DNA of 64,000 nt from NCBI RefSeq assembly GCF_964355755.1, contig NC_092673.1:12992948-13056947 (forward strand), read 5' to 3'. This DNA comes from Antedon mediterranea (taxonomy: Eukaryota; Animalia; Echinodermata). Positions within the stretch are counted from its first letter, which is position 1. Each line of letters opens with the position of its first letter. Both the position numbers and the translations under genes were made by a program. The notes below the pieces were generated by a model that was given only the letters and a program-made list of their open reading frames with translations, was not told the origin of the DNA and did no database searches. Positions 6,938 through 56,905 of the stretch are shown here, in pieces.

Positions 6938-8163
6938 CAAGACCAACCGCGAATAAAAGTAAATGCTGGAAATTAGATACTGCCATGCTTGGAATCAAAC
7001 GTATAATAAGCACTGCTAATCTTACTACTGCCTTAAATTCAATGCTCATGGACCAATGAGTTGCTGATTGGCTGCGAAAAATCCGGGCCTCTTGTACCAA
7101 GGTGTTGTAAAAGCCTTTGTTTGGTTCAATTACACCTTTACGCCTTTACTCTGATTCATTGTTTTTTAAAATTTGCATACTTAGCAGATGCAGATGTTTT
7201 ACCTCCGCCTAGTACGGGGCGCTGTTCGGGACATTACTCATTTTGTCGACATAATACAATTAAACACGTTGTTATAGGCCTAATAATTATAAAAATAAGT
7301 CAGGATAACTTACCACTATTATGACATTTGACTTGAAGAAAAACATTTGGTTTTAGTAATTTTAAACATCCTTTTGCAAAGTTACAACAAATATTCAAAA
7401 ACCTCAAACAATGGCGTTTTTACGTATTCCTCGCCTATGTTAACAGCAGCAACAAAGGTATAAAACAGATCATTTTGTTTTACAGCAAACTATTTCTGAA
7501 TCTAGCGTATTAATTTAGCAAAAGTAAATCCAAGATCATCTTAGTGTTGTTGAACAAGGCGCGTAAGAGTAGAATTTCGTTGAAAAGGTGTTGCTGAAAC
7601 AGATGCAGTGTTCAATCAACATGAAGTGAAGAGACATGAACCACGAGGGTACATGTCTTTCGCAACTCAATCGCAACTATTTTCTTTTTAGGAGAGTAAA
7701 AAAAATGTTTTTAAAATCTACTTCCACAAATATAAACAATATACAATATCGACAATATCTCCGTTTTTGTTGTGATCGTTAAAATACAAATTGAAGATAA
7801 AAGCAATTAACATTTTTTACAAGTAATAATAAACAGATATTTACAGCTTCAAGAGTACACTTCATGACAATGAACAAGTCTGGCGTGTGCAACATCTACG
7901 TAATGGAAAAATCCCTAGTCTTTGGAAAATTCTGTCATGCAGCTCACAGCAAAATTTCATCATATCTCCATGACGCCGTACTCAGAAATTAGGGTCTGTG
8001 TTTTGGTTTGTTTGAAAACAGAGACGACCGCAGAAACTGCGCATATTACAATACATGCACACAGACTGTTTTTCTTTTGTTGTGTCCAAAAATAAGATAT
8101 TCCTTGGGTTATATAGTTATAACTTTTCACACTAAGCCAGTCAGACATCATAACAAATTCAAA

Positions 8164-8951
8164 CGCCCGTATTCTTAAACCGGACTTTAGTTGTAGTTCG
8201 AAGGTCGACTTGAAAAAATTGTAGTTCGAGCTATTACTTCAAATTCGATTAAAAAACAAAGTAGTCGAAGTTTGCAGTTCGACTTAATGAAGTCGAGCTT
8301 TTAGTCGAGTTGCACACGTCTGGGTAACAAAGGCTATACATTGGCCAATGACAAGAAAGTATTTGAGGAGCAGACGAAATTTTGCGCATTGATATCACTT
8401 CGCACTTTCTTACAACACTTTTTACGCATCAGGACTATATACATGAAAAGTAATTTTAATCGTTAATTATTAGAACAAGATCAGTATTAATTTAACAGTG
8501 AAGTACTTTTGATTAACAACAAACAAAATCTTCAAAATATATTCAGGAACCATGGCGGTACGGTAACTTTTATATTTTCCAGGCCCCCAACAAAGTATGA
8601 TCGCGACGAACCACGCACTTCATAGCGTAACAGAAAGCGCTAGGCCCCCTAAACATTGCGTGGTGAATTTCCGCATCTGCCATTGTCGCTATGGCGTGAC
8701 GTAGTTCAAGTCGGACTTGCGCGAAGAAAATAATTTAATTTGTATACGGTTGTAAATAAAGATTATTTTCATTATTATAATATCAATGTATATTTAATTA
8801 AGCTAATATTAAAAAATAGATATTTCATTCTTCAATATCTGGCCAATATAACAACTCAATGACTGTTACATTTTTCATAAACATCGTTTAAAAACCATTT
8901 AGGCGACCATTTAGCGTGCCCCCTCCAGGACTAAAAAAATCGATCAAAATT
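8164..8951. mobile_element. truncated non-autonomous Harbinger related to 40746-42478
   Basis: Starts with the same TIR CGCCCGTATTCTTAAACCGGACTTTAG; 8877-8950 matches 42272-42345. Confidence 0.75.
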
Positions 8952-19690: not shown

Positions 19691-20449
19691 CAGGTCATCG
19701 CTTTCCAGAGTTCCTTATTATCTGTTCTCGCTTCAACTGTCCAGTTTTGATTTATATTAATGTTCTTGTAATGTGGATTGTTTTCTTTCAGCCACCGAAG
19801 TGCCGACAGGACCTTCTGAGGGTTTACATAATCATACATGTAATATGACTTGTATTTTCTTCTCCGTTTAAACTTCAGTGGCAATAACTGACTCTGTGAA
19901 GGCAGTCGCGGAAACAACTTACAAACAGTGTCCACTTTTGCTGGGACATTTACTGCAGGACCATGGATTGCATGTTGCCTTCCACGTGGTAATCCTACCA
20001 GTTTCATGAAAGGAATTCTTTGAGAAATAAGTCGTAGTTCAAGTGGGTTTAAATGTTTCAACTCTGGAGGCTGATCTGCAAGTTGTAAGTTGTTGGCTTT
20101 GGATTGACATGGCATTTTCCCATTTTTCATGGATTTATGACATGTGTGACAAATCCATTCTTTGTTATCCATTGATGTTTAATTAAAAATCTGTCTTTTC
20201 AGCTTTTGATAATTCAGTGGTTTAAATTGTACTACTGAACACCGATATAATAATCTGTGACACGAACAACAAATATAATCAGCAGCATCTTTCACATGTT
20301 TATGAAAATTAGCAATTACTTCTGCACTACTTGTAATGCTTAAGTCTCTTTTCTGACGCTGGTTTTTCACATTCTCACACACCTTGTCACGTCGTGCACG
20401 CTTTTCAACAGCAGTTTCCACACTTCGAGTTCTTTTTATATTTTGGTTT

Positions 20450-21497
20450 GCTTTGGCCAGTCTCTCTTTTTTTTGTTCCGTTGTTTCCTTATTTCGGGAT
20501 CTTGTAACATTCGTTTTTAGTTTGGCCAGTCTTTCATTTTTTTGTTCCATTGTTTCCTTACTTCGGGATCTTGTAACATTCGTTTTTACTTTGGTTGGTC
20601 TCTCTTTTTTTTGTTCCGTTGTTTCCTTATTTCGGGATCTTGTAACATTCGTTTTTAGTTTGGCCAGTCTTTCATTTTTTTTGTTCTGTTGTTTCCTTAC
20701 TTCGGGATCTTGTAACACTCGTTTTTACTTTGGTCAGTCTCTCTTTTTTTTGTTCCGTTGTTTCCTTATTTCGGGATCTTGTAACACTCGTTTTTACTTT
20801 GGCCAGTCTCTCTTTTTTTTTGTTCCGTTGTTTCCTTATTTCGGGATCTTGTAACATTCGTTTTTACTTTGGTCAGTCTCTCTTTTTTTTGTTCCGTTGT
20901 TTCCTTATTTCGGGATCTTGTAACACTCGTTTTTACTTTGGCCAGTCTTTCATTTTTTTGTTCCGTTGTTTCCTTACTTCGGGATCTTGTAACACTCGTT
21001 TTTACTTTGACCAGTCTCTCTTTTTTTTGTTCTGTTGTTTCCTAACTTCGGGATCTTGTAACACTCGTTTTTACTTTGGTCAGTCTCTCTTTTTTTTGTT
21101 CCGTTGTTTCCTTATTTCGGGATCTTGTAACACTCGTTTTTACTTTGGTCAGTCTCTCTTTTTTTTGTTCCGTTGTTTCCTTATTTCGGAATCTTGTAAC
21201 ACTCGTTTTTACTTTGGTCAGTCTCTCTTTTTTTTGTTCCGTTGTTTCCTTATTTCGGGATCTTGTAACACTCGTTTTTACTTTGGCCAGTCTCTCTTTT
21301 TTTTTGTTCCGTTGTTTCCTTATTTCGGGATCTTGTAACATTCGTTTTTACTTTGGTCAGTCTCTCTTTTTTTTGTTCCGTTGTTTCCTTATTTCGGGAT
21401 CTTGTAACATTCGTTTTTACTTCGGCCAGTCTCTCTTTTTTTTGTTCCGTTGTTTCCTTACTTCGGGATCTTGTAACATTCGTTTTTACTTTGGTCA
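20450..21497. repeat. coding tandem repeat, ~15 x 69 bp
   Basis: Encodes ERLAKVKTNVTRSRNKETTEQKK; frame shifts at T-runs. Confidence 0.92.
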
Positions 21498-24042
21498 AAG
21501 TAGTCAAGATGTGTCCCATTTTCTATCATCAATGCTTATATTTGACCAGGGTCAAAGGTTAATCTTTTTTTTCCTTTGTTTTATAAATGATATAAGTGAT
21601 GATACATTTGTACTCGTACTTGTACTAATAACACTCAAACAAATGATTCTAAAAGTTGACATACACATAAAATATTAATCCAAACACTATATATATACAT
21701 AAATGATTTAATGAATTTAAATATTTTTATAAATATTAATTATTAATATTCATATTATGAATATTAATTGTTTATATTACTGTGAAATGTAAAAAACCGT
21801 AAAGAAACAGTATTATATCTACATATACATCAATATACACACTGTATTTTCTATAGTGTGACGCATGCGAAAACAATGCTTATTAAAATGCGTACACATT
21901 AAGGAGTAACTTGAAAAAAGCCACGCATTTAAAATGTAACCAAATTTAAGGCTTTTTTGGCTCTGCTTTTTCATGTGGCGCATGCAAAATGAAATGTATG
22001 TGTGCAACATGATATTTTTACTTGTATGTACTGTATTTACATCAATGTATAAGAAAGCTACATAGTAGTTATTAGTCTGGGCTCCAGACGGAGTTTTTTC
22101 TTAATATTAGTAAAAATATAAACATTTTTGCACATATGGCGTTTCATACGTGTATTACTTGAGTTTGGATACTCCGTCTGGGGAAACACGCAAAAGTCAC
22201 GTGGTTTGACACCAAGAATTCTTGGTGCATAGATTATCCGGTTGACTAGTTTCAGCTGCATGCGATTGGCTACTCACTCGTACACCGTTTTAATATTCAT
22301 ATTTCAGAATTTCAAAGACTCAACAACTAAGATGGTACGCATGCGCTATGTTACGTTTAGACAATGTACTTGGGTACATTGATCGGGACATTGATGAAAG
22401 TTTCTGAAGGCTAGAAATGATTTTGATGGGATTTTCCCCAAGAACATGAAAACTCGTCTTGCTTCTCCGCAAATCAAACATTGAATGGATCATTTAATAT
22501 TACGCGGAGATAATTTGATTTAAATCCCACCTAGACCCTGTCCTGTTCTGAGTAGTGGTGTCGTAGCCCTGTCTGTTGTGTGTGAATCCTGTTGTGTGCC
22601 GGTGGTGGTATGTAGGCCTACCTCTTATTGGCGTTTTATTTGGCAGATCATACGTGCGAGTTGAAGTAGGCCTAGGCTAAATAAGGACTAAACAATTAAT
22701 AAACAAAACAACTTGGCAACACGATTTCATATTTCAACAGTCTCGATCGTACATTCAGCACTGTACGCACTCGATCTTTTTCATTTTGAAACAAAATGAT
22801 CATTGGTTGATTTGAAATCCATATTTACATACCGCCCGCCCCATATAACCAAATACGGTATGATAACCTACGTCATTCTTACAGTTGTTTGCGGTCTGCA
22901 AATCGATTTCTATACGTGTTTCACAAGTCTGTATTTTCAGAAAAAAATCGCGGTCGAAATAAAAACAAATAAATTATAAAAAAAAACAATACAGACTTGG
23001 GGCAAGTCTAAGTAGTTATATGCAAAATTGAACATTCAATTTTTCAATTGACAATTTACATTTTAATTACAAGTTCAGCCTTTTCAAAGTCTTGTAAAAG
23101 GATCATACATTTCTAACTCTATTTCAAAATCATATTCGATAGCATAAACAGCTTTTTGCTTGTTTGCATTTGCTTTATACCATCTGATTTCTTTGTTGAC
23201 TTTGAACATATGGTCCACTCGCTTCTCTATAAGTAATTCCGGGTTTTCTTTAGTTCTTCTAAATACTGTTATAAACTTGTCCTCATTCTCAATCCTCTGA
23301 CTAATTTTTAGTTTTTGTTGAATGAACTGTTCATCCCTGTGAATCAGTTTACAGTACTAATAGTTTCCTGCAGGCTGCCACTTTTTCTCTTTAAGCATTT
23401 GTTTTGTTGATGATCTGGAACCTAAAATATCTCCAACATCTCACAAGTTCATACCCTTATGTGGAGTTTGCATTTAAAGCAATGCACCATCTTAACATGG
23501 CCATTTCAAATGTAGCCTGTCAATTTATTTGTAAGTATAAGGAGCTCAATTATTTTGCTTTCGTTAAGATTGGATGAAAAGTTCTTCAAGACTTCGGTTT
23601 TACTACCTTGTCTCCGTATGTGTTCCAATCTTCTGTTGATATAGACAAGCATTTACTGGCCTGTCCAGTGTAATTGACAATAGCAATTAAAGACATGAAA
23701 TACCATCAATACAATGACCAAAGCCAAAAGACTTTGTACATGTTCTGCTATGTCTTCCCATTTCCCATATCAATGATTGGAAGTATATTACTATATACAA
23801 TATTACTCAACAAGTTGAATATTTAATGTTTAATGTGAGGTAAAAATTATTATTTCCTCACTGTCAATACTAGGCTAGGGTTGGCCTAGGGATTACTTAC
23901 ATGTTGCTAATATTAAAATTAATAACTAGCTGCTAGCCTACTGTAGGTCCAGACTACTTTACATCAATAATTACATCCTATATTTAAATAGATTATTTAT
24001 TATTAGAATAATGCTACTAATATTTTCCTAATTAGGGAGTAC

Positions 24043-25375: not shown

Positions 25376-25486
25376 TTCTACCATTGAGCAACAATGTTGA
25401 AACTGATATCACCATCCAATCAGTGGTTGAAATGGCTTGTCAAACACAAACAATGGAAAAAGCTGTGACATAAAAGATACAGTATG

Positions 25487-25974
25487 AACTGACAACTGAG
25501 TGTTAACATGTGGTATTGTACCAACAACAGGATATACTTTTAACTGACAACTGAGTGTTAACATGTGGTATTGTACCAACAACAGGATATACTTTTAACT
25601 GACAACTGAGTGTTAACATGTGGTATTGTACCAACAACAGGATATACTTTAACTGACAACTGAGTGTTAACATGTGGTATTGTACCAACAACAGGATATA
25701 CTTTTAACTGACAACTGAGTGTTAACATGTGGTATTCAGGATATACTTTTAACTGACAACTGAATATTAACATGTGGTATTGTACCAACAACAGGATATA
25801 CTTTTAACTGACAACTGAGTGTTAACATGTGGTATTGTACCAACAACAGGATATACTTTTAACTGACAACTGAGTGTTAACATGTGGTATTGTACCAACA
25901 ACAGGATATAGTTTTAACTGACAACTGAGTGTTAACATGTGGTATTGTATCAACAACAGGATATACTTTTAACT
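25487..25974. repeat. minisatellite, ~9 x 55 bp
   Basis: Unit AACTGACAACTGAGTGTTAACATGTGGTATTGTACCAACAACAGGATATACTTTT, no spacers. Confidence 0.95.
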
Positions 25975-26299
25975 TTAAGGAAGGAGATGGGACAAAATTA
26001 AAGAGTGTCTAAATAAAGCTACTTGGATCAGTATCATACAAACCAATGCCGATATATTTGACTTAATACAGGTAGAATAACACTGTATGTAATATTTGTT
26101 ATACACTAAATCTAAAGTCTGGTCATGAATTAACTGTACATTTTAAATTTATTCTCTTAATTTTTATAAAATACTTTTCTATTGAATTTTTTGAATTTTG
26201 ACATGTCATATTTATTTGCAGATGAAAATATTATACCACTTTATCACAAGTGGTAACACTTAACTTCAGAATGATGTTACAATCATAACATGATCTTAA

Positions 26300-39035: not shown

Positions 39036-40170
39036 CAATGATATCATGTATATCAACGTCATTTACATCGATTATCGTTTTCGTTAATGTTGTTGTCTTC
39101 TTCGTTGGCAATGGTATCATGCATACTGTATCAACGTCATCAACAATATCGATCTTATCTTCATAATTTTCGTTAATGTTGTTTTCTTCGTTGGCAATAG
39201 TATCATGCATATCAACGTCATTAACATCGATGTTATCTTCAAAATTTTCGTTAATGTTGTTGTCTTCTTCGTTGGCAATGGTATCATGCATATCAACGTC
39301 AATAACAACATCGATCTTATCTTCATAATTTTCGTTAATGTTGTTGTCTTCTTCGTTGGCAATGGTATCATGTAGATCAACGTCATTAACATCAATCTTA
39401 TCTTCATAATTTTCGTTAATGTTGTTGTCTTCTTCGTTGGCAATGGTATCATGTAGATCAACGTCATTAACATCGATCTTATCTTCATAATTTTCGTTAA
39501 TGTTGTTGTCTTCTTCGTTGGCAATGGTATCATGCATATCAACGTCATTAACAACATCGATCTTATCTTCATAATTTTCGTTAATGTTGTTTTCTTCCTT
39601 GGCAATGGTATCATGCATATCAACGTCATTAACAACATCGATCTTATCTTCATAATTTTCGTTAATGTTGTTTTCTTCTTCGTTGGCAATGATATCATGT
39701 ATATCAATGTCATTAACATCGATCTTCATAATTTTCATTAATGTTGTTGTCTTCTTTATTGGCAATGGTATCATGCATATCAACAGCATTAACAACATCG
39801 ATCTTATCTTCATAATTTTCATTAATGTTGTCTTCTTCGTTGTCAATGGTATCATGTATAACAACGTCATTAACATCGATCTTATCTTCATAATTTTCAT
39901 TAATGTTGTTGTCTTCTTCGTTGTCAATGGTATCATGCATATCAACGTCATTAACAACATCGATCTTATCTTCATAATTTTTGTTAATGTTGTCTTCTTC
40001 GTTATCAATGGTATCATGCATATCAACGTCATTAACATCGATCTTATCTTCATAATTTTCGTTACTGTTTTTGTCTTCTTCGTTGGCAATGGTATCATGC
40101 ATATCAACGTCATTAACATCGATCTTATCTTCATAATTTTCCCTAATGTTTTTGTCTTCTTCGTTGTCAA
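39036..40170. repeat. minisatellite, ~14 x ~81 bp, potentially encoding D/E/N-rich repeats
   Basis: Minus frame DVDMHDTIANEEDNNINENYEDKIDVN; unit lengths mostly differ by 3 nt. Confidence 0.9.
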
Positions 40171-40745
40171 TATCACTCGATAGTAAGAAATTAGAAACTA
40201 ATAATTGAAAAGCAGTACAATATTAATTTCTATGCTGGAGATTGTATTATTATTATTTATCATAATTAATTGTATTATTTTGTTTGTAAACTATATGTAA
40301 CTGTTATTTATTTTCTTTGTTATGTTATTGTAATACCGTATGTGTTACATGTATGAAATGAAATAGTTAGTCTTCGGTCTCTTCATTGTCTTTGATAACT
40401 GTCATGGCGAGACATGTGTTCCAACCACCACCGTTTAAAAAGGTTACATGTACGGGTAGCGGCAGGTTTTGTAGATCACCATCAACTATGGTATCCTGTG
40501 TGATGGTAAACAAGAAATTTGTCGTCTGGTGTTGCAATTACGGCCTCAAATGGACGTGTTAAACTATAGGATAAATTAAAAAGAAAAAGAAGATTTTTTT
40601 TTTATGTATCATTGATATTTGTATATTATGTATCAGGCATATGGGATAAACCCATTAAAACGAAGGACGGCCATACATTGCAAAATAAAATAATTTGAAC
40701 GTAACAGTAGAGAAAATCCGAACTGGATTGAAAAATATAGATTAA

Positions 40746-42478
40746 CGCCCGTATTCTTAAACCGGACTTTAGTCGTAGTTCGAAGTTCGACTTGAAAATG
40801 TCGTAGTTCGAGCTATTACTTCAAATTCGATTCAAAAACGATGTATCCAAAATTTAACTTTTCATGTTGTTCATATCAAAATGTATTGCTATTAAATTAC
40901 TCAATGTACAGAGGAGAGTGACGTGTGTGCTTCGTTCGTCCAACACAAGCATGATGATGGAAGGGGGAAATTATGTTACAATGTTTATGACGTACCTTGA
41001 TGACGGGTGTCCTTATGTAAAATATTGGTCGATTATAGCTTGTCTGTAGACTCTACCAGCTAATGCATCCTCTACATTTTCATCACCATTAACTTCTTCA
41101 TCGATTTCAATATCTACATCATCCCGTATAAATTCTACATTTCTTATAATGGTGATGTTGTGTAGGCAAGCTACAGCAACTATGGTTGTTAGGGTTGTTT
41201 CAAGCTTTAAGCGTAAATAATTTAAACAATTGAATTTACGCTTCCAGTTCCCAAACAACCGCTCAACTGAATTCCTGGTTCTAATTTGGGACCGGTTGTA
41301 CCTCTGTTGAGGCCTCCTATCAGGATTGATAACTGGTGTCAGGAGGTACCTCTTGCACCCATAACCAGAATCTCCAAGTAGCACACCATTGTGTACTCGA
41401 CGTTCAAATTCTTCGCAAATTAAACTATTTTCAAAAATACGAGAGTCGTGCACGGACCCTTGCCATCTAGCAACAATGTCTCTAATCATTAGACGATGGT
41501 CACCTATAACTTGGACATTTATAGAAAAATATCCCTTTCTGTTCCGAAATAGTTCGGCTTCCTGTCCACCTGGACAAGGTATCCGTACGTGCGTGCAGTC
41601 GATACATCCGATTACATTAGGGAAACCAGCAATCGCCCTAAATCCTTGTTGAACGATATCTCTGCCATCACCCATTGGAAACACAATCCACCTTCTATTC
41701 TCCTGTGCTAAAGCTCGAGAAACTTTTGCGATTATTCTGGAAAGGGTAGTTGCGATATGTTTTTTGCATCCCCGTGCATTAACTGAAATGTTCCAGTAGC
41801 AAAATAGCGTAGGGCTACGCAAACCTCTAACAACGGTGGTATTGTTGGGTGACCACCACCTCCTCTTGTATCCTTACGTAAATCAAGAATTCCTAACAAT
41901 TCAACAATAATCTCTTTAGAAACCCGATACCTTTGGACGAATTGGGAATCGTCATAATCAAATAGGGGGTTTGAACGATCTCTTATTACTTCAATTTCAC
42001 GATAATTTAAGCGATCATATCGCTGAACACGGGCGTTGAATTGCCTCGCCATGGTTATTAAAAATGGCGGATCAAAATAAAGTCCAACTTAACCAAGTTA
42101 AGTCGGACTTCAACATTACAAAAAAAGCCATTTATGACACGGTGTTAAAAAACCCCAATTAGCATTATCAAAATAAATATAAAATAATATTGTAATGAGC
42201 TAATAAAAAACTAGACATTTCATAATTCAAAATGCAACAAAAGTGATACGTTTATTCACGACACCTTTTTTATAAACATCGTTTAAAAACCATTTAGTCG
42301 ACCATTTAGTCTGCCCCATCCAGGACTAAAAAAATCGATCAAAATCCGTCTTGATTTAGTCGAGGTTGGCCTGAATTAGTCGGCGATTTAGTTGAAGTTC
42401 GGTTTATGAATTAAAATGACGTCATTTTTAAAGTTTTAGCTCGAACTACGACTAAAATCCGGTTTAAGAATACGGGCG
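40746..42478 (-). mobile_element. PIF/Harbinger transposon
   Basis: TIR CGCCCGTATTCTTAAACCGGA at both ends; TAA TSD at 40743-40745 and 42479-42481. Confidence 0.95.
41013..42052 (-). CDS. HARBI1-like Harbinger DDE transposase (one frameshift near 41750)
   Basis: ALRYFATG, GCIDCTHV, NRKGYFSINVQ, GSVHDSRIF, LLGDSGY, RNSVERLFG, ACLHN. Confidence 0.92.
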
Positions 42479-42919
42479 TAAGTGCCAACAGGAAAATATT
42501 CCGAATATCTGCAGAGGTACCATCTCGTCATTCGGATTATTTTCCAGTTGGCACTTAATCTATTTTTTTGCAGCATGCAATTCAACAACTGTTATCGCGA
42601 TGAGGGCGTGATCAGGTTTCATTCTCCATCCACGTGTGAGACAAGTAGTGTCACCATAAAGTTACTATAGTCGCATTTCTAGCTCTCTATGTAAAATGTA
42701 TGTGCGCGAATGCAAACATAAATATGTTATATGTTAGCCCATGATATGAAATTGATGGGAGTGAGTTTAGTTGATATGGGTTGTGTTATTATATGGAGAT
42801 ATGACAGTCTTCTCTTCATTTAACTTCAGCATGTTGGTACTCATCCATTAACTACCATTATTTATTAATTACCTATAAGTTTACTTGCGGCAAGCATAAG
42901 TGAACCATCCGTCATAAGC

Positions 42920-43530: not shown

Positions 43531-46500
43531 CACTGTGTTATAAATTTTACCGCCGTTTAGCGGTATGGTATATGCGCATACCTGGCGCGTGTATGTGCGG
43601 ACCTTAAATGACAGGTAATTCTAGCCAATCGTAGCACTGCGAAACAAAATGCACTGAAATTTTACACACGAAAACGCGTTTGATAGGCGCGTCAACAATT
43701 CAGAAGCTGTAGATGTTATAAAATTTGATCGGACTTTGTAAAGCTATTAAACATACTTAATTTAATAATAATTATTATTATAATAATTTTTAAAAAGTAC
43801 AGTTAATATCTTGAATAATATAAATATGTACATATCTACTTCATATTGTTATTTAATGTCTTTTTAGTTGTTTTACAGCTGTTTCAAAAACCATCGTTTA
43901 GCATTTGTGACATGGTTGTTTTGCAACGACATGCACACGCACAGACAATTCAACAGCTCAGACTGTGCTGTTATGTGTTTTATTATGTGAAGCTAGCAAC
44001 TGTAGAAAAACTGAATAAAGTTAAAAATATACCTACCTGTGTTTTCATTTGATAAACTTGTTTTATTCACTGAATTGATATGATTGATTTTAGTAAGGGC
44101 ATCACATTTTAACATAACTATTTTGTAGGTGGTCTAATACAATCATCATGACTGAAACAAAATACACAAAAACTTTGGTTTGTTTGGTACTGTATGTGCT
44201 TTAAAAAAAATTTTTTTTTTTTATGGTGAAACAGGCATATTATGTCTATATAATTATAGATACATTTAGTGTTTTTTGGTGAAACTATCCCCTGCCGGAC
44301 ACCAACCCGGTATTTCTGAGTCGCGGTTTCGGGGTCATGATTTTATACAATTTATACAATGATATATAGGCCTACAAGAACATAATTGGGTTTTCTCTCT
44401 ATACACCATGGTTTTTTGTTTTTTTTTATGGTAAAACTATTCCCCGCAGGACACCAACCTGGTATTTCTGAGTCGCGGTTTCAGCGCCATGATTTATATA
44501 GGCCTACAAGAAAAAAAAAATTACAAATAACGTATGATAGACAATGTTAACATAAATAGGCCTGTGCTTTCTCTCTATATACAGTGTTTTTTTTGGTGTT
44601 TTTTTTTAAATGGTAAAACTATCCCCCACCGGACACCAACTTGGTATTTCTTTCTTTTTTTTTTTTTTTTTTTTTTTGTGTAATTTACACAATTTATACA
44701 ATAATTTATATATAGGCCTACAAGAACAAAAACATAATTTTACAAATAACGTATGATAGACAATGTTAACATAAATAGGCCTGTGTTTTCTCTCTATACA
44801 ACGTGTTTTTTTAATTAATTAATAAATTTTTTTTTATGTTAAAACTATTTCCTGCTGGACACCAACTCGGTATTTCTTAGTTGCGGTTTTGGGGCCATGA
44901 TTTATGTAGGCCTACAAGAACAAAAAGTGCTCTCTGAGTATGGAGATTAAATACTAACATTAGCCTTTCAACATTATCTCGAACTGGGGCATATTGTCTG
45001 GCGTCTGCATTTACTGCCGTGTTCGGACAACAGACCTAAAGTCCTAAACACAAGGGCGCATTCATTAACATGGGATATTAAGATGTGCAGTTTGGGCGGA
45101 ATGTTCTGCTCAGGAAATATACTACAAAAGAAAATTCTCAATGCACAACAGCTGCCACCTCGTTGTTGCATAAAAATGTTGCACTTGTGAAAAAAAAAAT
45201 ATGGTCCAACCTACCGGCAAATTAACATACCTCTGGTGATCGAGAAGTCCCTCTAAGCATACCAGGACTCTCACCGAATTACGCAAAATCTCCTTGAAAT
45301 GATTCCCAATAAAACATTGCGAATGGTATGCTTGATTTTTGACGTGCAGCTCATCATCCAAAATTGAATTCAACAACTTTTCTCTTGGACCAATTATCCC
45401 TTTAACTTCTTCATATACTTCCGCCAATTCCTTTTCTGCTACACCCTTCTCCTTTTCCATCTTTTCTACGCTTTCCTTACAACTTTTTTCTCTATTGGTG
45501 TTCAAGCTGCTTTCTACATTGATGACAATGGAATTCCATATTGCACATAGTCCTCACCCTTCAAGCCCACACAATCTACATGAAACCATTTCCTATCCTC
45601 TTCCAACTCCTCATCACAGCTTTCGCATCTAATCCAGGAAATGTCCCCAGCCACTACTCCTTCTACTTTATGCCTTGCGAGTTCACTAGTGGCTAGGGCA
45701 CATTTGTCCGAAAGACCATTTCCACGTTGACGATTCATACAATTTCGAAATCCTTCCAGAAGTGAAACTTGATATCTTAAGTCGGCTCTTGATACTTCCG
45801 TCTTCTCTTCTAATTCTAGTTCTGTTATTTATTTGTTAATTTCGTAGCTTAAGTTAGTTAAGATGTTTTAAAAGGTACCAAGCTTGATTAGCTCTGGCTA
45901 TATCTTGGCTACCTTTTGTATTGATTAATTGTTTGATAAAATAAAGAAGAAGAACAGGGAAAAAATTACTTTACCTTTTCCGTTTTCATGTTCCATTCAA
46001 CGAACGTCGGGTTCTCTTCGACATTTTTACTTCCGCTTTTCTCGCTATGTCCTCGATTTGCTTTGAAAAACGAACCGTGAGACCTAACATGATATGTAGT
46101 ACTGGTGGAACTACATGCACCATGTCACTTCCCATTGGCAGTAATGGTGCCTCGAAGATTGAGTGGTGGAACTTGCTGTCTCCTTTATTTTTTTTATCTG
46201 CTTTGCAGTTTGCGAGGTCTGTGGCCATTTGTCCTGGTGTTCTTTCTTCGGCATACCACGAGGCGTTTTCACACCAGTTGCCATCTTCAGATTTTACCAT
46301 TGGTGAATGTGGACGAATGGTTCGTTCATTTACAGGCCTGTACAGGTCGTCACGATGGATATAACACCACAGACAGGGGAAGGTAGACACCGGTCCGAGG
46401 TGGCCCACTTGAGCCACTCATAATTACTGACTGGTTTTTCACATTTTCTGTAGTGTTAACTCATTCTGCAAATGAACTGTTAAGTGTACACACCTAACAT

Positions 46501-46793
46501 AGCTATGTCCTCGATTTGCTTTGAAAAACGAACCGTGAGACCTAACATGATATGTAGTACTGGTGGAACTACATGCACCATGTCACTTCCCATTGGCAGT
46601 AATGGTGCCTCGAAGATTGAGTGGTGGAACTTGCTGTCTCCTTTATTTTTTTTATCTTCTTTGCAGTTTGCGATGGATGGATGGATATAACACCACAGAC
46701 AGGGGAAGGTAGACACCGGTCCGAGGTGGCCCACTTGAGCCACTCATAATTACTGACTGGTTTTTCACATTTTCTGTAGTGTTAACTCATTCT
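43531..46793 (-). mobile_element. Chapaev-type (CMC/Transib-related) transposon, 3' half
   Basis: GHLGPVSTFPCLWC, VPPVLHIMLG, GPREKLL..QAYHSQCFIGNH, IPPKLHILISHV..LGLLSEHG; terminus CACTGTG at 43531. Confidence 0.75.
44275..44925. repeat. subterminal repeats, 4 x ~175-215 bp
   Basis: AAACTAT....GGACACCAAC..GGTATTTCT..GCGGTTT recurring at ~44282, 44434, 44616, 44842. Confidence 0.8.
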
Positions 46794-47658
46794 TTGACAT
46801 GTATCTCAAATGGTGGTAGCATGTTGTATCCTACACAACTTCTGCATTGATGAATGAGATATATACAATCAAGTGGGATGTTGCAGATGAACATTACCAG
46901 CAGCCACATGTAGAAGATGAGCCTTTTGTAGAGGCCAATGCCATTAGGGCAGCTTTAGTACAGTACTTTGCCTATTTACTGTAATGTAGACAAGAAAACA
47001 TTCTGTAATAAATATTTTGCTATCTATAAATAATGTGCTGCAATTTCATTCAATTTTTGGGTAAACATGCGAGACTTTATTCATAATTTAAAATATACGT
47101 TACAGTAATAATGAAATAACAAATAACTTGGAAAAGAAGACATCGAATATTGAATGATTTTTTGTAATACAGCAATTGCATAAAGATACTGAATATGTAA
47201 ATATGTGTACAATTTTATTTCTTAAAAATTAAAATGTAATACAGTAATAACCTTGTTCACAATTATACAGCAAAATGATGCAACAAGTAACTTTTATAAT
47301 GCAATATAAGCAACTGCACAAGGCCATCCATTCTGTACTGTACATATGTAAACATTTTCTTTTTTGTTTTAGTACACCAATGAATTCATAATTAAAATTA
47401 TACGGTAGTGATGAAATGACAATGGATTTTATAATGCACCAGCAACAATTGCATATTAAGGCTACCTATTCTGTATGTACTTATATTTTAACATTTTTCT
47501 TTTCTTAAATTGATATAACTTCTTTTATGTTTTAATTACACTTAATGCACACTTCTAAATTTGACAGTAATATAGGGTTGCATAAACATTGTTTTTAAAC
47601 TGGGAAAACGAATGTGCAACATGCAATAATACGTGAAAATATTTGCTCGCAGCGCCAA

Positions 47659-47966
47659 TGTTGTAAAACGGCCGAGAATATAATCAGATTAGCAGAAAGT
47701 AGTGTGGCTTACCTGTCGTTGTGGGCTGGTCTCTTGGGAGTTCATAGCCCAGCAATTTCCAACAGTAAACACTACAATCTTTATGTGGTATCTGGGTATC
47801 ACGCACGGTAGACACTCAGTCTAATATTCCGATGAGCGGTGTCTGTTCTCCGTGTATCTGCTATTCCGTCTAAACCTCAAGAGAGCGCAGGTCTCTCCGG
47901 GACGGCACACATGACCTCGGGTCACTCGGTGGACCAAACCATTAAGCGGAGGGGTATTTCACTACA
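47659..47966 (-). repeat. 3' LTR of the Gypsy element
   Basis: Minus-strand PPT GGGGGAAG followed by TGTAGTGAA; ends ..TTTACAACA (distal boundary approximate). Confidence 0.7.
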
Positions 47967-48141
47967 CTTCCCCCGATTTTATAAGGCCAGGGCCGGCGCC
48001 CGGGTGGTCATGCTGTAAAAAAAAACAATAACTTCTGGTTAACGCTAAGATAACTGAATCTGGTGCATCTTCTAGCACCTTACAAAAAATAACATAATAA
48101 AATAACTTAAAACTTCTGGTAGGCCGCCGGAATGGTCGGCT

Positions 48142-49679
48142 CTACACCATAAGGAACAGATCTCGGCCGTTCTTCCGGGTCAAGTCTAGAACTTGCTCGG
48201 CGTCCTGGCCCAAGATCCTTCCGACTACCTCGGTGCACCCACTCGTTGCCCCGGAGGAGCAAAGTGGGGCCCATCGGATTCCAGTAGCAGGCGAAAGATG
48301 TGTAAAGCTGAAATAGGTCAGGGGGAAAACACTCCTAAACCTATCGGCCATTAGCACAGTCGATGAGAAATTATGCAGTAGAATGCGTACACATCTTTGA
48401 ACCCGTGCTATCTGCAAGATGTTTAGGCAGTTCTGATAACACGTCTCCGCCGTCGGGTCGTTGCGACTGCCTCTTAGGTGCAGTCAAATCGCCAGATGGT
48501 GTCGAGGTGAGAAAACCTGTGCCAGTCAGCTACCGGAACGGAGTGGTCCAAGCCAATCTCCCCGAGCACCCGGGTAGCGCCGGAGCGCACCAAGGCCTTC
48601 AGTCGGGAGAGTTGACCAGGCGAGACCTTTTTGGGGTGCACCCCGACCCCCACCTCATATCCCTCTCGCCGAAGGCGATGAATCTCCTCCGCTGAAGGGT
48701 AAGAGGGAGGATCGCAAAAGATGGCGACACCCCCAACAGGTCTTACCGGCTTTGTCTGGGCTCAAGCTGGTTCAGCTAGCAAGGTCTCCATCAGTGTGGC
48801 TCGAGGAGACAGCCTCAGAAAAGAGCGCAAACGGTCCGGGTGGAAGTGGGCGTCGAACGCTCTCATCGTGGTCCGCACCATCTTCTTCTGCCGCCTGGAG
48901 GGGGTCGGTGACCCGAGCCTCCTTTTGCGTTTTACGTTCTTAAGTCTGGTGGCCGGTGGCTGGGCGCGGCCAGTCTCGGCCTCAGCTTCGGCTGCGGCGG
49001 GCTGGGCGAGGGGATTCTCGGCCTCAGCTTCGGCGGCTAGCTGGCTCATCTTGGTGATGTCCATCCGCTGGGCCATCGCTACCATGTAGCGCCAATGGAT
49101 TAGGGCCGCTGGATGGTTGAGTGGCACAAGGTTAAATCCTTCAGGTGGCTCACCTCCGATCGCCACTTGTAGCTCGGACATCATCTCCAGTGTCCTCTGG
49201 TCGATGACGCCTACATGCGGACCAACAGCCCTCTCAGCATTCAGCTGGGTGACCAGGTCGTCCAAAGTGGACTCCGGCCTACCCAATATTTCAACGGCGT
49301 ACTTCCGCAGCAGGCAGAGCTTGGTCTGTGTTTTTTGCGGAGTCGACGGTAATTTAAAACATGAGGGGAGGTGGTGCGACCACACGTGCCTCCTCATGTT
49401 GTGCACAGCCTCGAAGTTACATCCCGGAAACACGCACAGGTTTTTACGCCGTGGGCGTGAATCCTCGGTCGGCGCTGGATGGTGGTGGTTCTGGCGTTGA
49501 CTCGAGGGCAGTATCTACGCCGGTCACGTCTCCACTGACCTCCGCCGTTGGTGCTGGGGTAGGTTCAGATGCGAGTAGTCGTCGCCAGGTTTCCTCCTGC
49601 TCCTCTCCCGACAGGGCACGCCACCGTCCATCGACTTGCCGTTGTTGTCTCAACCCGATTTCGGTTGCGCCGAAAACAA
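48142..49679 (-). pseudogene. Gypsy extra ORF: C2H2 zinc finger plus TatD-family metallo-nuclease, decayed
   Basis: CVFPGC..MRRHVWSHH; FDAHFHPD, VGVHPK, LGEIGLDHS, LHLRG, ILLHNF, RLLLESDGPH, TRKNGRDLF; stops and frameshifts. Confidence 0.82.
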
Positions 49680-49748
49680 CTTATGGAGATACAAAAATAC
49701 GAAGACAATTAAATAACGGTACCCTACAATCGCTTCAGCTTGGACTAC

Positions 49749-51510
49749 TCAGTCTCTGCAGTTAGCGCATTTGTAGCGGTCGATATTCAGAGCGTCTAAA
49801 GGTGAGACATTCACGCAGGCGCCATGGTACCAAACGTCACAGTAATCGCACTGAATCATGAATGACCCAGCCCAGGGCTTCCGGCAGGAACAGTATAGCG
49901 TTCCAGGCGCATCGTCGACGTTCTCCTCGCTCGGATCTGAAAGAGATAAATGATAGTTAGTTATCCACCTCGGGAGCTGCCGGTCGTGACAGGGCTTGAG
50001 CTTGTCGTGGTTAAAAACCATCACTTTGTTCCTCAGCTTGACCCGGAACAGTCCCGGAGAGATAACTTGGATGATGATGCCGGGTCCCTTCCAAGGAGGA
50101 CACAGCTTCTTGCATTTACCCTTCGGTTGGCTATTATCTAGCACATATACCTTATCCCCACGGTCGTAGGGGCGTGAGAGGACACGGAGGTCGTAGTCTC
50201 TCTTCATGCGTCGCTGCGTTTCCCCCAGAGTAGCCCATGCTATGTCGTGTACTTCACGGATTGATTGTGTGAGAGCGGTCACGTAGCTATCGGGTGCTCG
50301 TGCAGTTGGAGGGTCGCTAGCTGTAAACATGAGATCGGCCGGAAGGTTGATCTCTCGTCCGAGCATCAGCATGTTGGGAGTGTACCCCGTCGAGCGATTC
50401 ACCGTCGCCCAGAGGGCTCCAGTTAGCTGTGGTAGAAACACATCCCAATCTTTCTGCTGCCGGCCTACAAAACATCTCACAGCATCCATCAGTGTCCGGT
50501 TGTATCGCTCCACCTGGCCGTTGGCGGCGGGTCGGTAACTGGTGGTCCTGGTCTTGTGGATCTGTAAAACTTTACATAAAGAACTAAATAATTCACTTTC
50601 AAAATTACTCCCCTGATCAGAGTGGAGTTCCAAAGGCATCCCGAACCGGGAGAAGAAATTCCCTACCACGGCTCGGGCCGTTACCTCCGCTGTCTGACAA
50701 GGAAGTGGGCTCGCTTCAACCCACTTAGTGAATTGGTCCACCATCATGAGAATGTATACATTGCCCATGTTGGTTTTAGGCAAAGGCCCAAGGAAATCGA
50801 TATGTACCCGTTCCATGGGTGTACCTGCATGAAAGTTTGTTAAGGGATACCGGGCTTTACGGCCGGTTTTCTTATTATGAAGGGTCGTCTTTGCGCTCCA
50901 ACCACCGCAGGATAGGCTGGAGATCAGCATCCTTACGTTGTTGGTCCCGGAGTTCGCTGACGGAGTACCCCCAACATCGGGCGGTCGGTGTCTCCGGCTG
51001 AATCGATGTGACCATATCTCCATCCTGTAAAATACAAATATTAGTTAATCCCTTGGAAGCCCGGGTTACTTCCACGGTCGCTCGACCACCCGGGTCCCAT
51101 ACAAACCCCTCATTACCCACTCCTCCACTTGCCTGTCGAATCTGGGAGATGGGTACGACGTCGTCGACATCCTCCCGGAACCGGGCCCATTTCGCATGCG
51201 TCCTACGGCAGTAGGTGCAACCCCCACAGGGCAGGTCGTCCGGAGTGATGGCACCGTGCTCACACCCCCCAAGACGGGAGAGTGCGTCTGCATTGGTGTG
51301 TAAACTACCTCGCTGGTGCTCGACTACCATGCTATACTGGCTGAGCTCCTCCATCCAACAAGCTAGTTGTCCTTGGGGACCTTTGAAATTAAGGAGCCAG
51401 GTTAGACTGCTGTGGTCGGTTCTTACCCGGAAAGGCTGGCCCAGCAGGTAGTGGCGGAAATGCCGGGTCATATACACAATGGCCAGCAACTCCTTACGAG
51501 TTGTGCACCA
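49749..51510 (-). pseudogene. Gypsy pol 3' part: RNase H end, integrase, C-terminal PHD finger
   Basis: TTRKELLAIV..RTDHSSL; HIDFLGP, HSDQGSNFES, NGQVERYNRT, WKGPG; LYCSCRKPW..MIQCDYCDVWYHGACV..YKCANC; integrase HHCC region missing. Confidence 0.92.
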
Positions 51511-51587: not shown

Positions 51588-53246
51588 TTATATCTGGAAC
51601 ATTGATTTGCTTAACTTATTGCTGCTTGAGAAGGAAGAGATGACTGCTGACTTGACTGGTAATAATGTGAAGGATGAAGCTGAATAAGGCATTGCATTTG
51701 CTGCATTTGGTTTTTGTCGGTTATTGAACATTTGTCCAAGCACTGTATACAATTCTAGTTGTCGTTGATGAGCTTGTTCGGCTTCTTTGTGCCATTGTAC
51801 GGCTTCTTCTCGTCTCTGTTCTTCGGACATGAGTAAGTTTTGTTGAAGTTCCAATTGGTGGCTATGGTGAGACGCACCAAATTGTTTGCTGGCTTCTGCA
51901 ATGGACTCCGTAAAACATGATACAATTTCATCTACCTTTGCCTTTTTTTTTAACCAAGATAGAGAAAATTTTAACTATATCTATATCGTTTTTAGGTAGT
52001 TTGGCTTATTAAAGACTTCCAATTAATATTAGGTGAATATTAGGTAATATGGCTGTCTTTAGGCCAAGTTACTAAATCAATGTTACTTCAGTCTACATAG
52101 GATCATCTTATTTAATTGTTCTTAATTAGGAATGATTAGATTGCATGTAAACAAACGTACCTTTGCCTTTTGTTTTTGATTGTTGCTTCTCCTGTTTATC
52201 CTCAGGAGTGGAAGATTCTTTTCTTTTTCTTGCAACTGGTGTAAATAGATCTATGAAAAATGTTTGTGTTAATGCCAAAAACAATGAAGTACTATTATAT
52301 TTATTCTTAACTGAACATATTTAGAGTTGTTTAGATTGAATGACAATGTTTTTTCATTTGCAAGTACAACCTAAACACTAGATTTGTTTTACAATACAAT
52401 TGTCAAGAATGGTCACAGATAATTGTTATTTAAATGTAATGGACACACCGTTATTAATATAATTATGAGTATGCCTACCATCAACTACATCCTCTGTCAG
52501 AATGTCATCTTCCTGGAGAAGATCCAGAAGATTAGACTTGCCATCGTCTTGTGTCCCTTCGGACAAATTTGATTCATCAGTAACTGTAAATTGAAACAAT
52601 AATTTTTAATTTAGTTTTAATAGACAGTGTGTTGACCTTTTTTTTTTTTAATTAAGTAAAGTTGCTGTAGGCATACATGCCAATGATTAAATACATTTTC
52701 CAATTTAATCTTATTAATTAAAATTTTAAAGCTAAAAGTCAGATTTGTGTAAAACAAAGGGTTTCCCAAACAAAGGCCCTGCTCCTCGTGACTGAAGAGA
52801 ACAATAACATCGGCCTAGATTTAGGACATAATATATCTGATTATATTGGTAGATAGTATTTAATCTTACCTGATGGTTCATTTGCTTCAAAAGTTGTGGC
52901 ATCCATTCCATCCAGGACGATGTTTGGCCTGCTGACAGGTCGATCTCCAAAAATGGAGTCCATTTCGGGGAAGTACAGCCATTCTGTAGGGGGACTTGTT
53001 ATTTTCATCTTTTGCGGCAGTGTATTGTCGTCGCAAATTCTTGCATTTGTTGATGATTTGTTTGTTGAAATCGTATCCGTTTTCACACAATTTTTTCGCG
53101 ATTTTAACATAAATGGACGCGTTTTGTCTTGTCCCGTCAAATCCAACTTGTATACGCTCTTCTCCCCATATTTCTATCAACGCATGTGTTGCAGCGTCAC
53201 TCCAACCTCGGTTGCCTGTTGCTGACTCATGCAATGTTTGTATCAT
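51588..53246 (-). pseudogene. Myb/SANT-like (trihelix) DNA-binding gene of Harbinger, multi-exon
   Basis: WSDAATHALIEIWGE..IYVKIAKKL..KCKNLRRQY..WLYFPEMDSIFGDRP; donor at ~52869; coiled-coil last exon. Confidence 0.8.
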
Positions 53247-53799
53247 TGTGTATTAAATGAGTTAATTGCCGCTTTTATTTTGTATTAATTTATTTAGTTT
53301 ATTGATAACATTTGTAGTGTGAAAATTGCCAGCATGAAAAAAAGTCGAGCCTGACGCATCGTCTTTTGAATGACTTATCTTTTTTATTTTTAAATAAACA
53401 TTTAGCGTCATACAACGATTTCTTTTTATTTACTTTAAAAACGATAAGATAATACACAAGCGGCATCTTTTGAATACTTATTTTGGTATCAGTCCTTCCT
53501 GAATACAGTAGGAATAGGCTAGGCTGTTGATTATTACCATGGAGATGACATAATATCCGACAAAAGCTGGTTAGTAAATAATTAATTACATTGGAGAGGT
53601 CAACTTGTCCCCCGAGGCTACTTAAAAAGGCTACTTCAGATACTCCAACCGGCCAAATTCCAGATGGTATAGTAATTACACGGAATCTATTTCTGTTTAT
53701 ACAACGCGCCAACGTCAATGCGTGTAAATTTAGCGTGTTGTATAAACGGGCCCAGAGACAGAGTTACCCACCCTCACATATTGAGACCTATGTAAGAAA

Positions 53800-54160
53800 A
53801 TCACTTATCCAGAGTGAAATATAAGGGCTGATGTTCCACTTAAGATAGCTTTTCCAATAGGATATGCGGTTGCATTAGATTAAAGGCTGGTGAATAATCA
53901 ATGAATAAGCCTCTCGCATATGTACCCTTCTTGTCTAAATGTGAACCAACAAGATGTAGGAGGGCAAGTATGGCTTCATCAACCCCACAATCACACTGGT
54001 AAGCAAATTGCATATTGTCAAGATAGTCATTAAATTCCTTCATTAGTTGCCCTACTGGGCGGAAATCATTAATCACTTTAGGAACAGGTATTATTTCGGA
54101 CATTTTCCATAGTTCCGGAATAACACCAGATTTTAAGGAACATTCAAAACCCATTTACAC
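53800..54160 (-). mobile_element. LINE RT fragment (Rex1/L2-like)
   Basis: WKMSEIIPVPK, NDFRPV, LDNMQFAY, LFIDYSPAFN. Confidence 0.8.
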
Positions 54161-55847: not shown

Positions 55848-56905
55848 TATTAGTATTATTATTATTATTACTTGTATAGCGCACATTTATACAACATTTA
55901 ATTATAATCAGCGGCGTTTCACATCAATTAGTATCGTAACATTGTTTGAAATATAGTGCTTTTAAATGCTTTTTAAACTGATTATAGTCTAAGTGTTTAA
56001 TGTGACTTGGTAATCTGTTCCAAATTTTGGGTCCTGCTACGGCGAACGAACGGTCAGCAAATTTCTTTCGTTTAATTCGTAGGATTGTCAGGTTATAATT
56101 GCTGGTGCTTGAACGAGTACTGCGAGAAACATTCCGCACAGTAAGAATATCTCTCGGGTAACTTGGAGCGGAACCTTTAAGCGAACGCCATACAAGACAC
56201 GCTATTTTGAATTGACATCTATGAGACATCGGAAGCCAGTAAAAGGATCGCATGGCGTTTAGTTGCACTGTCATACCGACCTTTCCTGACAATTATTTTC
56301 GCAGCTTGGTGCAGTAACCTCTTCATTGGAGCAAGGTATTAGCAGGTAGACCATAATACAATGCATTGGCGTAATCAATATGTGACAGCACGAGCGATTG
56401 AACTAGTTGTTGGCAAAGGTCCTTGGAGAGAAATTTGCGGATTTGACGAATATAGTATAAATTAACAGCTATCGTTCTGCATTTATCACGTATGTGGTTC
56501 TTGAAAGATATTAACACCAAGGTATTTTACAGATGAACCACGTGTTATTCTGTCCTGACATACGATGATATGATCTTTCTCACATTTCAGGAGTTGAGCT
56601 CTGCTTCCCAATAGTATGAACTCTGTTTTTTCACTGTTCATTTTTAGTCTGTTGGACTTCATCCAGTCGTTGATGGATATGAGGCACTCTTGTAATTTGG
56701 TGATTGTATTTTCCATACTAGAACTAGAATTTGGATTAAATGAATCATACACTGAGTGATCATCGGCATATCCCATCACAGAAATATCAAACTTACTGAT
56801 ATGATCTTGTAAAGTGCTGGCATATATGGTGTATAGAACTGGACCGCATATACTACCCTGAGGTACAGAGAAGGACAAATTGGCTTTCATCCACACTCCG
56901 TCAGG
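55848..56905 (-). mobile_element. 5'-truncated L2/CR1-group LINE with (TAA)n tail
   Basis: VPQGSICGPVLY, YADD, RLKMNSEKTE, IDYANALYYG, RSFAVAGPKIWNRLP. Confidence 0.9.

Follow-up and report, generated by a model that had tools for sequence, protein, structure and literature searches.

The 64,000-nt stretch of the genome of the echinoderm Antedon mediterranea analyzed here (contig NC_092673.1, positions 12,992,948 to 13,056,947; hereafter, the window) contains, at 51505-47644 on the minus strand, a dead, 5′-truncated copy of a Gypsy-type long terminal repeat (LTR) retrotransposon. Behind pol, this copy carries a decayed third open reading frame (ORF3) encoding a zinc domain and a TatD nuclease domain. 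Four of nine listed public sequencing runs, of which X1 and X3 represent one sample, were compared with the window for read depth. Read along the minus strand, the order is RNase H, integrase with a PHD finger, the pol stop codon (49749), ORF3, a polypurine tract, the LTR, and a motif resembling a primer-binding site, with the following coordinates:

50878-51505, minus strand: 3′ part of RNase H and linker to the integrase (Pfam RT_RNaseH, E 2.4e-17; boundary set by the joint of 47644 and 51506 in run X6)
49749-50877, minus strand: integrase core, SH3-like part, and C-terminal PHD finger (Pfam rve, E 5.2e-15; PHD, E 5.8e-8)
49681-49700, minus strand: pyrimidine tract ending in AG, a putative, non-canonical (not YAG) splice acceptor, positioned as the acceptor-like site of the relatives
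49447-49680, minus strand: 5′ piece of ORF3, Pro/Glu-rich and disordered, with no start codon in frame (from translation)
49050-49440, minus strand: zinc domain of ORF3, with C-x4-C-x10-H-x4-H-x-P, a helical body, and the motif P-x-N-x-P-A-x-L-I-H-W-R (from alignments, conservation, and a model of a relative's domain)
48860-49049, minus strand: linker with basic patches resembling nuclear localization signals at 48932 and 48896 (from a basic-patch scan)
48142-48859, minus strand: class II (HxH) TatD TIM-barrel domain, broken into pieces (from Pfam and tblastn with crinoid relatives; contigs of other copies have loose ends at 48522 and 48300)
47967-47980, minus strand: polypurine tract (from sequence; a G-run likewise stands directly before TGT in the related loci L011, L015, L018, L021, and L035)
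47659-47966, minus strand: single LTR of 308 bp, TG...CA, with a splice-donor-like site at 47715 (from sequence)
47644-47657, minus strand: primer-binding-site-like 14-mer directly after the LTR, at the end of the insert (a similar motif follows the LTR in L018, L021, and L035)

The 5′ end of the window copy is cut off within RNase H, and gag, the protease, the reverse transcriptase, and the 5′ LTR are gone. The N-terminal zinc finger of the integrase (Integrase_H2C2), which is present in intact relatives, had no Pfam match in the window copy and was lost near 50876. The TG...CA ends of the LTR, the polypurine tract before it, and the primer-binding-site-like motif after it are those of a Ty3/Gypsy element. 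No second LTR was found in the window, where the copy is truncated; the short contigs of the relatives seem to collapse their LTRs. The original prediction, which had been made from the letters of this locus, described a GC-rich and dead ORF remnant, and this description was borne out: the GC content of the ORF3 region is 0.58 vs 0.36 in both flanks, and the frame is broken by two stops, an in-frame one near 48762 and one near 48485, and by deletions or frameshifts near 49450-49510, 48520, 48300, and 48230. In one contig of run X6, which carries a different organism code, positions 47644 and 51506 are joined across 29 other letters, and this empty site fixes the ends of the insert. The insert runs from the middle of RNase H to the end of the primer-binding-site-like motif after the sole LTR, and no duplication was evident at the empty site. 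This shape may reflect an incomplete product of reverse transcription that was inserted into a break independently of integrase, or the remnant of a tandem or one-LTR-circle insertion.

A C2H2 finger followed by ordered TatD motifs had been proposed between the pol stop codon and the polypurine tract and LTR, and all of these motifs were located there on the minus strand: the zinc motif C-x4-C-x10-H-x4-H from 49436, DAHFH at 48854-48840, GVHP at 48644-48633, GEIGLD at 48563-48546, LHLR at 48483-48472, LLLESDGP at 48290-48267, and the end motif with a stop codon near 48142. The Cys/His motif is present as described, and it opens a larger domain of approximately 145 residues. The TatD profile match sought as a check was found: the Pfam TatD_DNase model matched the piece at 48477-48761 with an E-value of 2.4e-5 (24.3 bits, less than the 27-bit cut-off) and the piece at 48145-48483 with an E-value of 0.047. 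Crinoid relatives scored 1e-18 to 6e-27 against the same model, and in tblastn they tiled the ORF3 region of the window with E-values of 1e-79 to 2e-50. The Pfam matches and this tiling together place the TatD identity far beyond chance. The class II TatD residues (HxH, the E of GExGLD, H, H, and ExD) also occur in order across the pieces in the window.

The read-through ORF yielded four relatives among 7,995 scored candidates, all with PF01026: one A. mediterranea protein (86% across its best segment), two Anneissia japonica proteins, and one protein of Lytechinus pictus. The relative P0002 keeps all seven active-site residues. By eye, a short stretch of the 5′ piece of ORF3 (49447-49680) looks like the crinoid protein P0005; the N-terminus of P0005 is unrelated and His/Pro-rich. 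In run X3, the read depth was 1288-2293 over the TatD part vs 202 on the right flank, and in run X6 it was 976-2311 vs 164-331 in the flank; the elevated depth, which is not a copy number, is a hint of many diverged copies. Contigs from the four runs spanned the whole element, including TatD, with many of them 80-99% alike, and the TatD part was covered by many diverged contigs in three samples. A contig of run X5, which belongs to a second study, covered 49652-49960 with 10 differences and bridged the pol stop codon and the region where ORF3 begins.

When a DNA pattern for the HxH motif of the family was applied, 28 metagenome loci were obtained, 20 of which contained family members; the other eight (L012, L013, L019, L024, L028, L029, L030, and L037) were chance matches and were dropped before counting. 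In all nine family loci that extend 2.2 kb or more beyond the motif on its upstream side, pol lay upstream on the same strand and ended in a PHD finger, which for L016 was assigned by similarity to the window integrase. The remaining 11 family loci extend no more than 1.8 kb upstream; in one of them, gag lies downstream of a purine tract. Two loci, L018 and L035, contain unbroken gag (514 and 508 amino acids), pol, and ORF3 (907 and 1081 amino acids), followed by a G-rich tract and TGT. Their pol shows the complete Ty3/Gypsy order of protease, reverse transcriptase, RNase H, and integrase, with the PHD finger at its end, and the window copy retains RNase H followed by integrase. The gag gene, which the window copy has lost, matched PNMA, Retrotrans_gag, Ty3_capsid, and zf-CCHC in the relatives L016, L018, L022, and L035. 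In these four loci, the only ones with the start of gag, Gag opens with a helix-hairpin-helix motif (Pfam HHH_3, E 1e-6 to 4e-3), an unusual addition. The clade is therefore defined by three marks: a helix-hairpin-helix at the start of Gag, a PHD finger at the end of pol, and TatD as ORF3. Thus, the retrotransposon lineage with its own TatD nuclease that had been predicted was recovered in every informative locus, and other copies do carry the ORF, since contigs in the sequencing runs span the TatD part and ORF3 is intact in L018 and L035. The reverse transcriptase part of this clade may already have been named under a Gypsy clade, such as A, B, C/SURL, CsRn1, or MolGy (PMC6238403), without its ORF3.

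ORF3 has its own frame and its own start in the intact elements. Fusion of TatD to pol was found in none of the 46 long family proteins scanned, and no match to the window integrase or RNase H was found in the first 153 family proteins. In the starfish gene model P0196, integrase, PHD, and TatD are combined; this model and P0178, in which parts of pol and TatD also share one model, are probably annotation joins of neighboring ORFs. In L022 (2978-4029, oriented), gag and the protease are followed directly by the end of the integrase with its PHD finger and an unbroken TatD ORF3, and the reverse transcriptase, RNase H, and integrase core are absent; L022 is possibly a non-autonomous derivative that has kept ORF3.

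A phylogenetic tree was constructed from 46 TatD domains and rooted on eight bacterial TatDs as the only outgroup, with no animal TATDN2 included. The family formed one side of a starred branch opposite the bacterial TatDs. The crinoid rows and one unbroken piece of the window copy formed a starred group that nests with proteins of bivalves and with L015, L022, L031, and L034 (support 100/99), and the sea-urchin and starfish rows went with L018 and L035 (99/99), apart from the crinoid group. In the integrase tree, the same two sets were recovered in 97% of the bootstrap trees (unlabeled rows ignored). Joining the crinoid and starfish integrases was rejected (approximately unbiased test, p-AU 0.008), and placing the window integrase in one clade with L015, L022, L031, L034, and L038 gave a p-AU of 0.31. 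A first comparison of integrase and TatD had given a weak rank correlation of 0.38 over 36 non-independent pairs, with unresolved trees. The comparison of TatD and integrase phylogenies suggested with the original prediction thus returned the same two groups from both genes, indicating that TatD tracks the element rather than the host, with modest deep support. Proteins annotated as TATDN2 sat among the element-borne rows of the TatD tree, and a multi-copy, element-borne setting is ill-suited to an orthologue of the host TATDN2, although the domain may still descend from TATDN2. Among solved relatives, the profile scored YcfH at 137 bits, Escherichia coli TatD at 113, YjjV at 81, TATDN3 at 63, and TATDN1 at 57, and TATDN2 had no entry in the list.

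Of 136 TatD pairs examined for the ratio of nonsynonymous to synonymous substitution rates (dN/dS), 12 passed the identity filter and two had a measurable dS. The ratio, which had been named as a further check, was 0.11 for L020 and L034 (178 codons) and 0.12 for L016 and L033 (few changes), showing purifying selection on TatD in these two pairs. The dS was saturated in the 10 other listed pairs, which shared 45-59% amino acid identity. The integrase gave a similar value (0.10, one pair). Very probably, the TatD gene is functional and, as an element-borne gene, characteristic of the clade.

When a profile of six sequences was searched against 1.84 billion cluster representatives, the family combining TatD with the zinc domain comprised 367 clusters at E ≤1e-30. 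Its common plan is a variable disordered arm (median, approximately 240 residues), the zinc domain, a linker, and TatD, with the zinc motif C-x4-C...H-x4-H-x-P followed by P-x-N-S-P-A-x-L-x-H-W-R. Named members came from echinoderms (crinoids; the sea urchins Lytechinus, Diadema, and Strongylocentrotus; and the starfish Acanthaster), the hemichordate Ptychodera, the abalone Haliotis, and the bivalves Crassostrea, Magallana, Saccostrea, Ostrea, Mytilus, Pinctada, Pecten, Mya, Ruditapes, Mercenaria, and Dreissena, and their public labels were “uncharacterized,” “tatD,” “putative deoxyribonuclease TATDN2,” or “mucin-like.” At 90% identity, the Dreissena cluster (P0206) had 47 members on several long contigs of one mussel genome, and an identical 866-residue protein of this cluster was found on five Dreissena contigs. 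The active site (H, H, E, H, H, E, and D) was complete in 188 of the 212 proteins that span it. The E. coli-type equivalents E91, E201, and D203 are required for activity in TatD and TATDN2 (PMC10711561). No relative was found in viral contigs with P0002 as the query, and alignment A4 gave just 10 short bacterial-type TatDs, from which the outgroup of the TatD tree was drawn. Two family proteins, P0108 and P0116, have CCHC zinc knuckles in the N-terminal arm. Five members (P0029, P0177, P0081, P0195, and P0229) are annotated in bacterial genome bins (Sedimenticola and Ca. Thiodiazotropha); these are probably animal host DNA.

A pyrimidine tract with YAG occurred within 520 nt after the pol stop codon in six of the nine loci, vs 0.12-0.45 per 520 nt expected from pol, and an ATG lay within 10 nt of the acceptor-like site in four of those six and likewise in L022, where the site falls just under the threshold. 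A donor-like site was found in the LTR of the window copy (47715), in L018, and after the polypurine tract in L026. These acceptor-like and donor-like sites suggest that ORF3 is likely made from its own spliced, env-like message; env is expressed from a spliced message in Ty3/Gypsy elements. In a model of the relative P0024 (predicted local distance difference test, pLDDT, 85.9), two confident domains were joined by a disordered linker. The C-terminal domain has the TatD fold and matched TatD and YcfH structures in Foldseek with E-values of 5e-14 to 3e-12. The zinc domain of a relative, modeled alone, reached a pLDDT of 97 and a predicted template modeling score of 0.90. This domain had no Atlas match at ≥0.9, a best Z of 3.5 among 48,161 solved chains, and no viral match at E ≤0.001, an outcome that establishes neither a new fold nor a difference from known folds. 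A basic patch was present in 30 of 118 proteins, approximately threefold more than the 9.2 expected, and in the window copy. A hydrophobic 19-mer was found in two of the 118 proteins and not in the main piece of the window copy; the signal peptide and transmembrane anchor of an env product were thus not recognized, and judging from its sequence the ORF3 product is not an envelope protein. A Pfam Metaviral_G match (E 0.015) was rejected as below the cut-off and sitting on the low-complexity linker.

A Gypsy clade with a TatD nuclease as its third gene is real, and its conceptual precedent is found in rotifers. The statement that Gypsy elements carry env or nothing at this position proved too strong, since ORF3 of the bdelloid rotifer elements Juno and Vesta is a DEDDy 3′-5′ exonuclease or a GDSL esterase (PMC5408684). 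Like the elements described here, Juno and Vesta are of the Gypsy type and have a non-env 3′-exonuclease ORF3 between pol and the 3′ LTR, with catalytic residues intact (PMC5408684). However, the DEDDy enzyme has an RNase H-like DEDD fold that is unrelated to the TatD TIM barrel; moreover, the present gene marks a clade across at least three phyla, contains an extra zinc domain, and accompanies a pol that ends in a PHD finger and a Gag that begins with a helix-hairpin-helix. With the class II enzymes YcfH, TATDN2, and TATDN3, ORF3 shares HxH, the E of GExGLD, two further His residues, ExD, and the TatD fold (PMC10085689 and PMC10711561), and with TATDN2 it shares a long disordered N-terminal arm and basic patches. 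In contrast to these three, it is element-borne and multi-copy and forms a single long ORF in intact elements, and where TATDN2 consists of a disordered N-terminus and TatD only (PMC12709183), ORF3 has a folded 145-residue zinc domain. It resembles the env genes of errantiviruses and Ty3/Gypsy elements in its place after pol and its probable spliced message, but it would encode an enzyme with no membrane segment (found in 2/118) rather than a fusion protein. A metazoan env survey reports no env-carrying elements in echinoderms (PMC13524379). Accessory domains known in such elements include the chromodomain and a DnaQ-like exonuclease (PMC6338049). The term TatD did not occur in the paper on the rotifer elements (PMC5408684) or in the main text of a mollusk LTR survey (PMC6238403) and the env survey (PMC13524379), and the TatD passages of PMC5408686 and PMC6962438 were off topic. 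Literature searches combining TatD with retrotransposons, Gypsy, integrase, LTR, retroelements, or bivalve transposons found no description, within a scope that excluded Repbase and subscription journals.

The ORF3 TatD is predicted to be an active metal-dependent 3′ nuclease. TATDN1, TATDN3, TatD, and YcfH are single-stranded-DNA 3′ exonucleases and apurinic/apyrimidinic endonucleases (PMC10085689), and human TATDN2 degrades R-loop RNA, its binding being dependent on the disordered N-terminus (PMC10711561). By analogy with these enzymes, and with the other chromatin- or DNA-binding additions of the clade, ORF3 may serve its own element as a nuclear accessory nuclease, a role that we propose tentatively and to which we give slightly less than an even chance. 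The protein would be made apart from Gag-Pol, through a message in which a donor close to the 5′ end is spliced to the acceptor that precedes ORF3, and would enter the nucleus by means of its basic patches. The zinc domain and the long disordered arms would then aim the nuclease, as the disordered arm does for TATDN2, at the element's own RNA-DNA hybrids and single-stranded ends, so that it might clear R-loop RNA over the GC-rich element and trim single-stranded 3′ ends at integration gaps.

Several observations weigh against this proposal or against the steps on which it builds. Most Gypsy elements replicate without such a gene. No acceptor-like site reached the threshold in L022, L032, and L038, the AG at 49681 in the window is not a YAG, a donor-like site followed the polypurine tract in only two of six other loci, and none was found upstream of gag at four contig ends. 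The basic patch was below the threshold in 88 of the 118 proteins. The integrase split has a support of just 71/94, with unresolved deep branches. In the crinoid proteins P0005 and P0006, active-site residues are replaced and the frame is kept; these may be decayed copies or non-catalytic versions adopted by the host. Furthermore, TATDN2 does not cut plain RNA-DNA duplexes (PMC10711561), and a role on reverse-transcription hybrids therefore does not follow from TATDN2.

Expression apart from pol would suit an enzyme that acts in trans against host defense, by destroying stray complementary DNA (cDNA) or RNA-DNA hybrids that would trigger innate sensors, or by removing the nascent or small RNAs through which the element is silenced. 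Clearance of retroelement cDNA is a function of TREX1, and cGAS-like receptors are numerous in bivalves. Such a role would fit the known TatD substrates (PMC10085689 and PMC10711561), a silencing-related role was raised for the DEDDy ORF3 by Rodriguez et al. (PMC5408684), and a TatD-like nuclease is part of a phage-defense system (PMC13434339). However, the strong conservation of the active site and zinc domain and the low dN/dS are unlike the fast change often seen in host conflicts, and we regard counter-defense as rather unlikely; the broader picture of an old Gypsy clade of marine invertebrates whose TatD, aimed by a zinc domain with an as yet unsolved fold, destroys tell-tale cDNA, R-loops, or silencing RNAs, and thereby evades sensing and silencing, is equally doubtful. 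The enzyme might instead be packaged in the particle, where it would trim untemplated 3′ additions or primers during reverse transcription and so aid strand transfer and integration. The gene does travel with pol, and the 3′ exonuclease activity of TatD enzymes favors single strands (PMC10085689), but ORF3 is unfused to pol in the intact elements and in all 46 long family proteins, the proteins of 700-1100 amino acids with long disordered arms show no evident packaging signal, and pol already has an intact RNase H, making packaging unlikely.

Two further explanations were weighed. ORF3 might be passive cargo, or be kept for a benefit to the host such as germ-line DNA repair; fish primordial germ cells need the host Tatdn2 (PMC12709183), and in rotifers no clear relation was seen between ORF3s and copy number (PMC5408684). 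Selection at the level of the element is indicated instead by the purifying selection acting between dispersed copies, the presence of near-identical copies (the 47 members of P0206) across many contigs of a single mussel genome, the element-specific zinc domain, and trees that follow the integrase rather than the host, and this explanation appears quite improbable. A one-off capture of a host TATDN gene by a single copy could draw on the public annotation of some relatives as “putative deoxyribonuclease TATDN2”; it is scarcely credible in view of the same layout in nine of nine informative loci, the position of the TATDN2-annotated proteins among the element-borne rows of the tree, and the many diverged contigs covering the TatD part in three samples.

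The TatD gene adds a new enzyme class to the cargo of LTR retrotransposons, where it characterizes an entire clade instead of being captured sporadically. With hundreds of intact natural proteins whose type of active site is well studied, the role of non-env ORF3 nucleases in retroelements can be tested directly; the family also brings a confidently modeled zinc domain without a solved relative. Many annotated genes of bivalves and echinoderms that are labeled “TATDN2-like,” “tatD,” or “YcfH-like,” as well as some TatD genes of symbiont bins, are probably transposon genes, and such annotations affect claims of gene-family expansion.

The window contains other mobile and repetitive sequences. 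A decayed Harbinger-type Myb/SANT gene lies at 51588-53252 on the minus strand (Pfam Myb_DNA-bind_4, E 1.8e-13), and the retrotransposon copy sits just downstream of it or inside it. A Harbinger-type transposase at 40745-42479 (DDE_Tnp_4, E 4.5e-29) lies between 54-bp inverted repeats, with a related end at 8163-8273. Fragments with Cys/His motifs and local duplications at 45122-46793 (minus strand) had no Pfam match and are possibly another decayed DNA transposon. Reverse-transcriptase fragments of non-LTR retrotransposons occur at 55924-56905 and 53840-54154 (both minus strand; RVT_1, E 1.1e-14 for 56489-56905). Tandem arrays were found at 20345-21613 (unit, approximately 69 nt), 25409-26024 (approximately 55 nt), 39036-40264 (approximately 81 nt), and 1024-1269 (approximately 41 nt), and the 81-nt array contains long open frames of acidic repeats.

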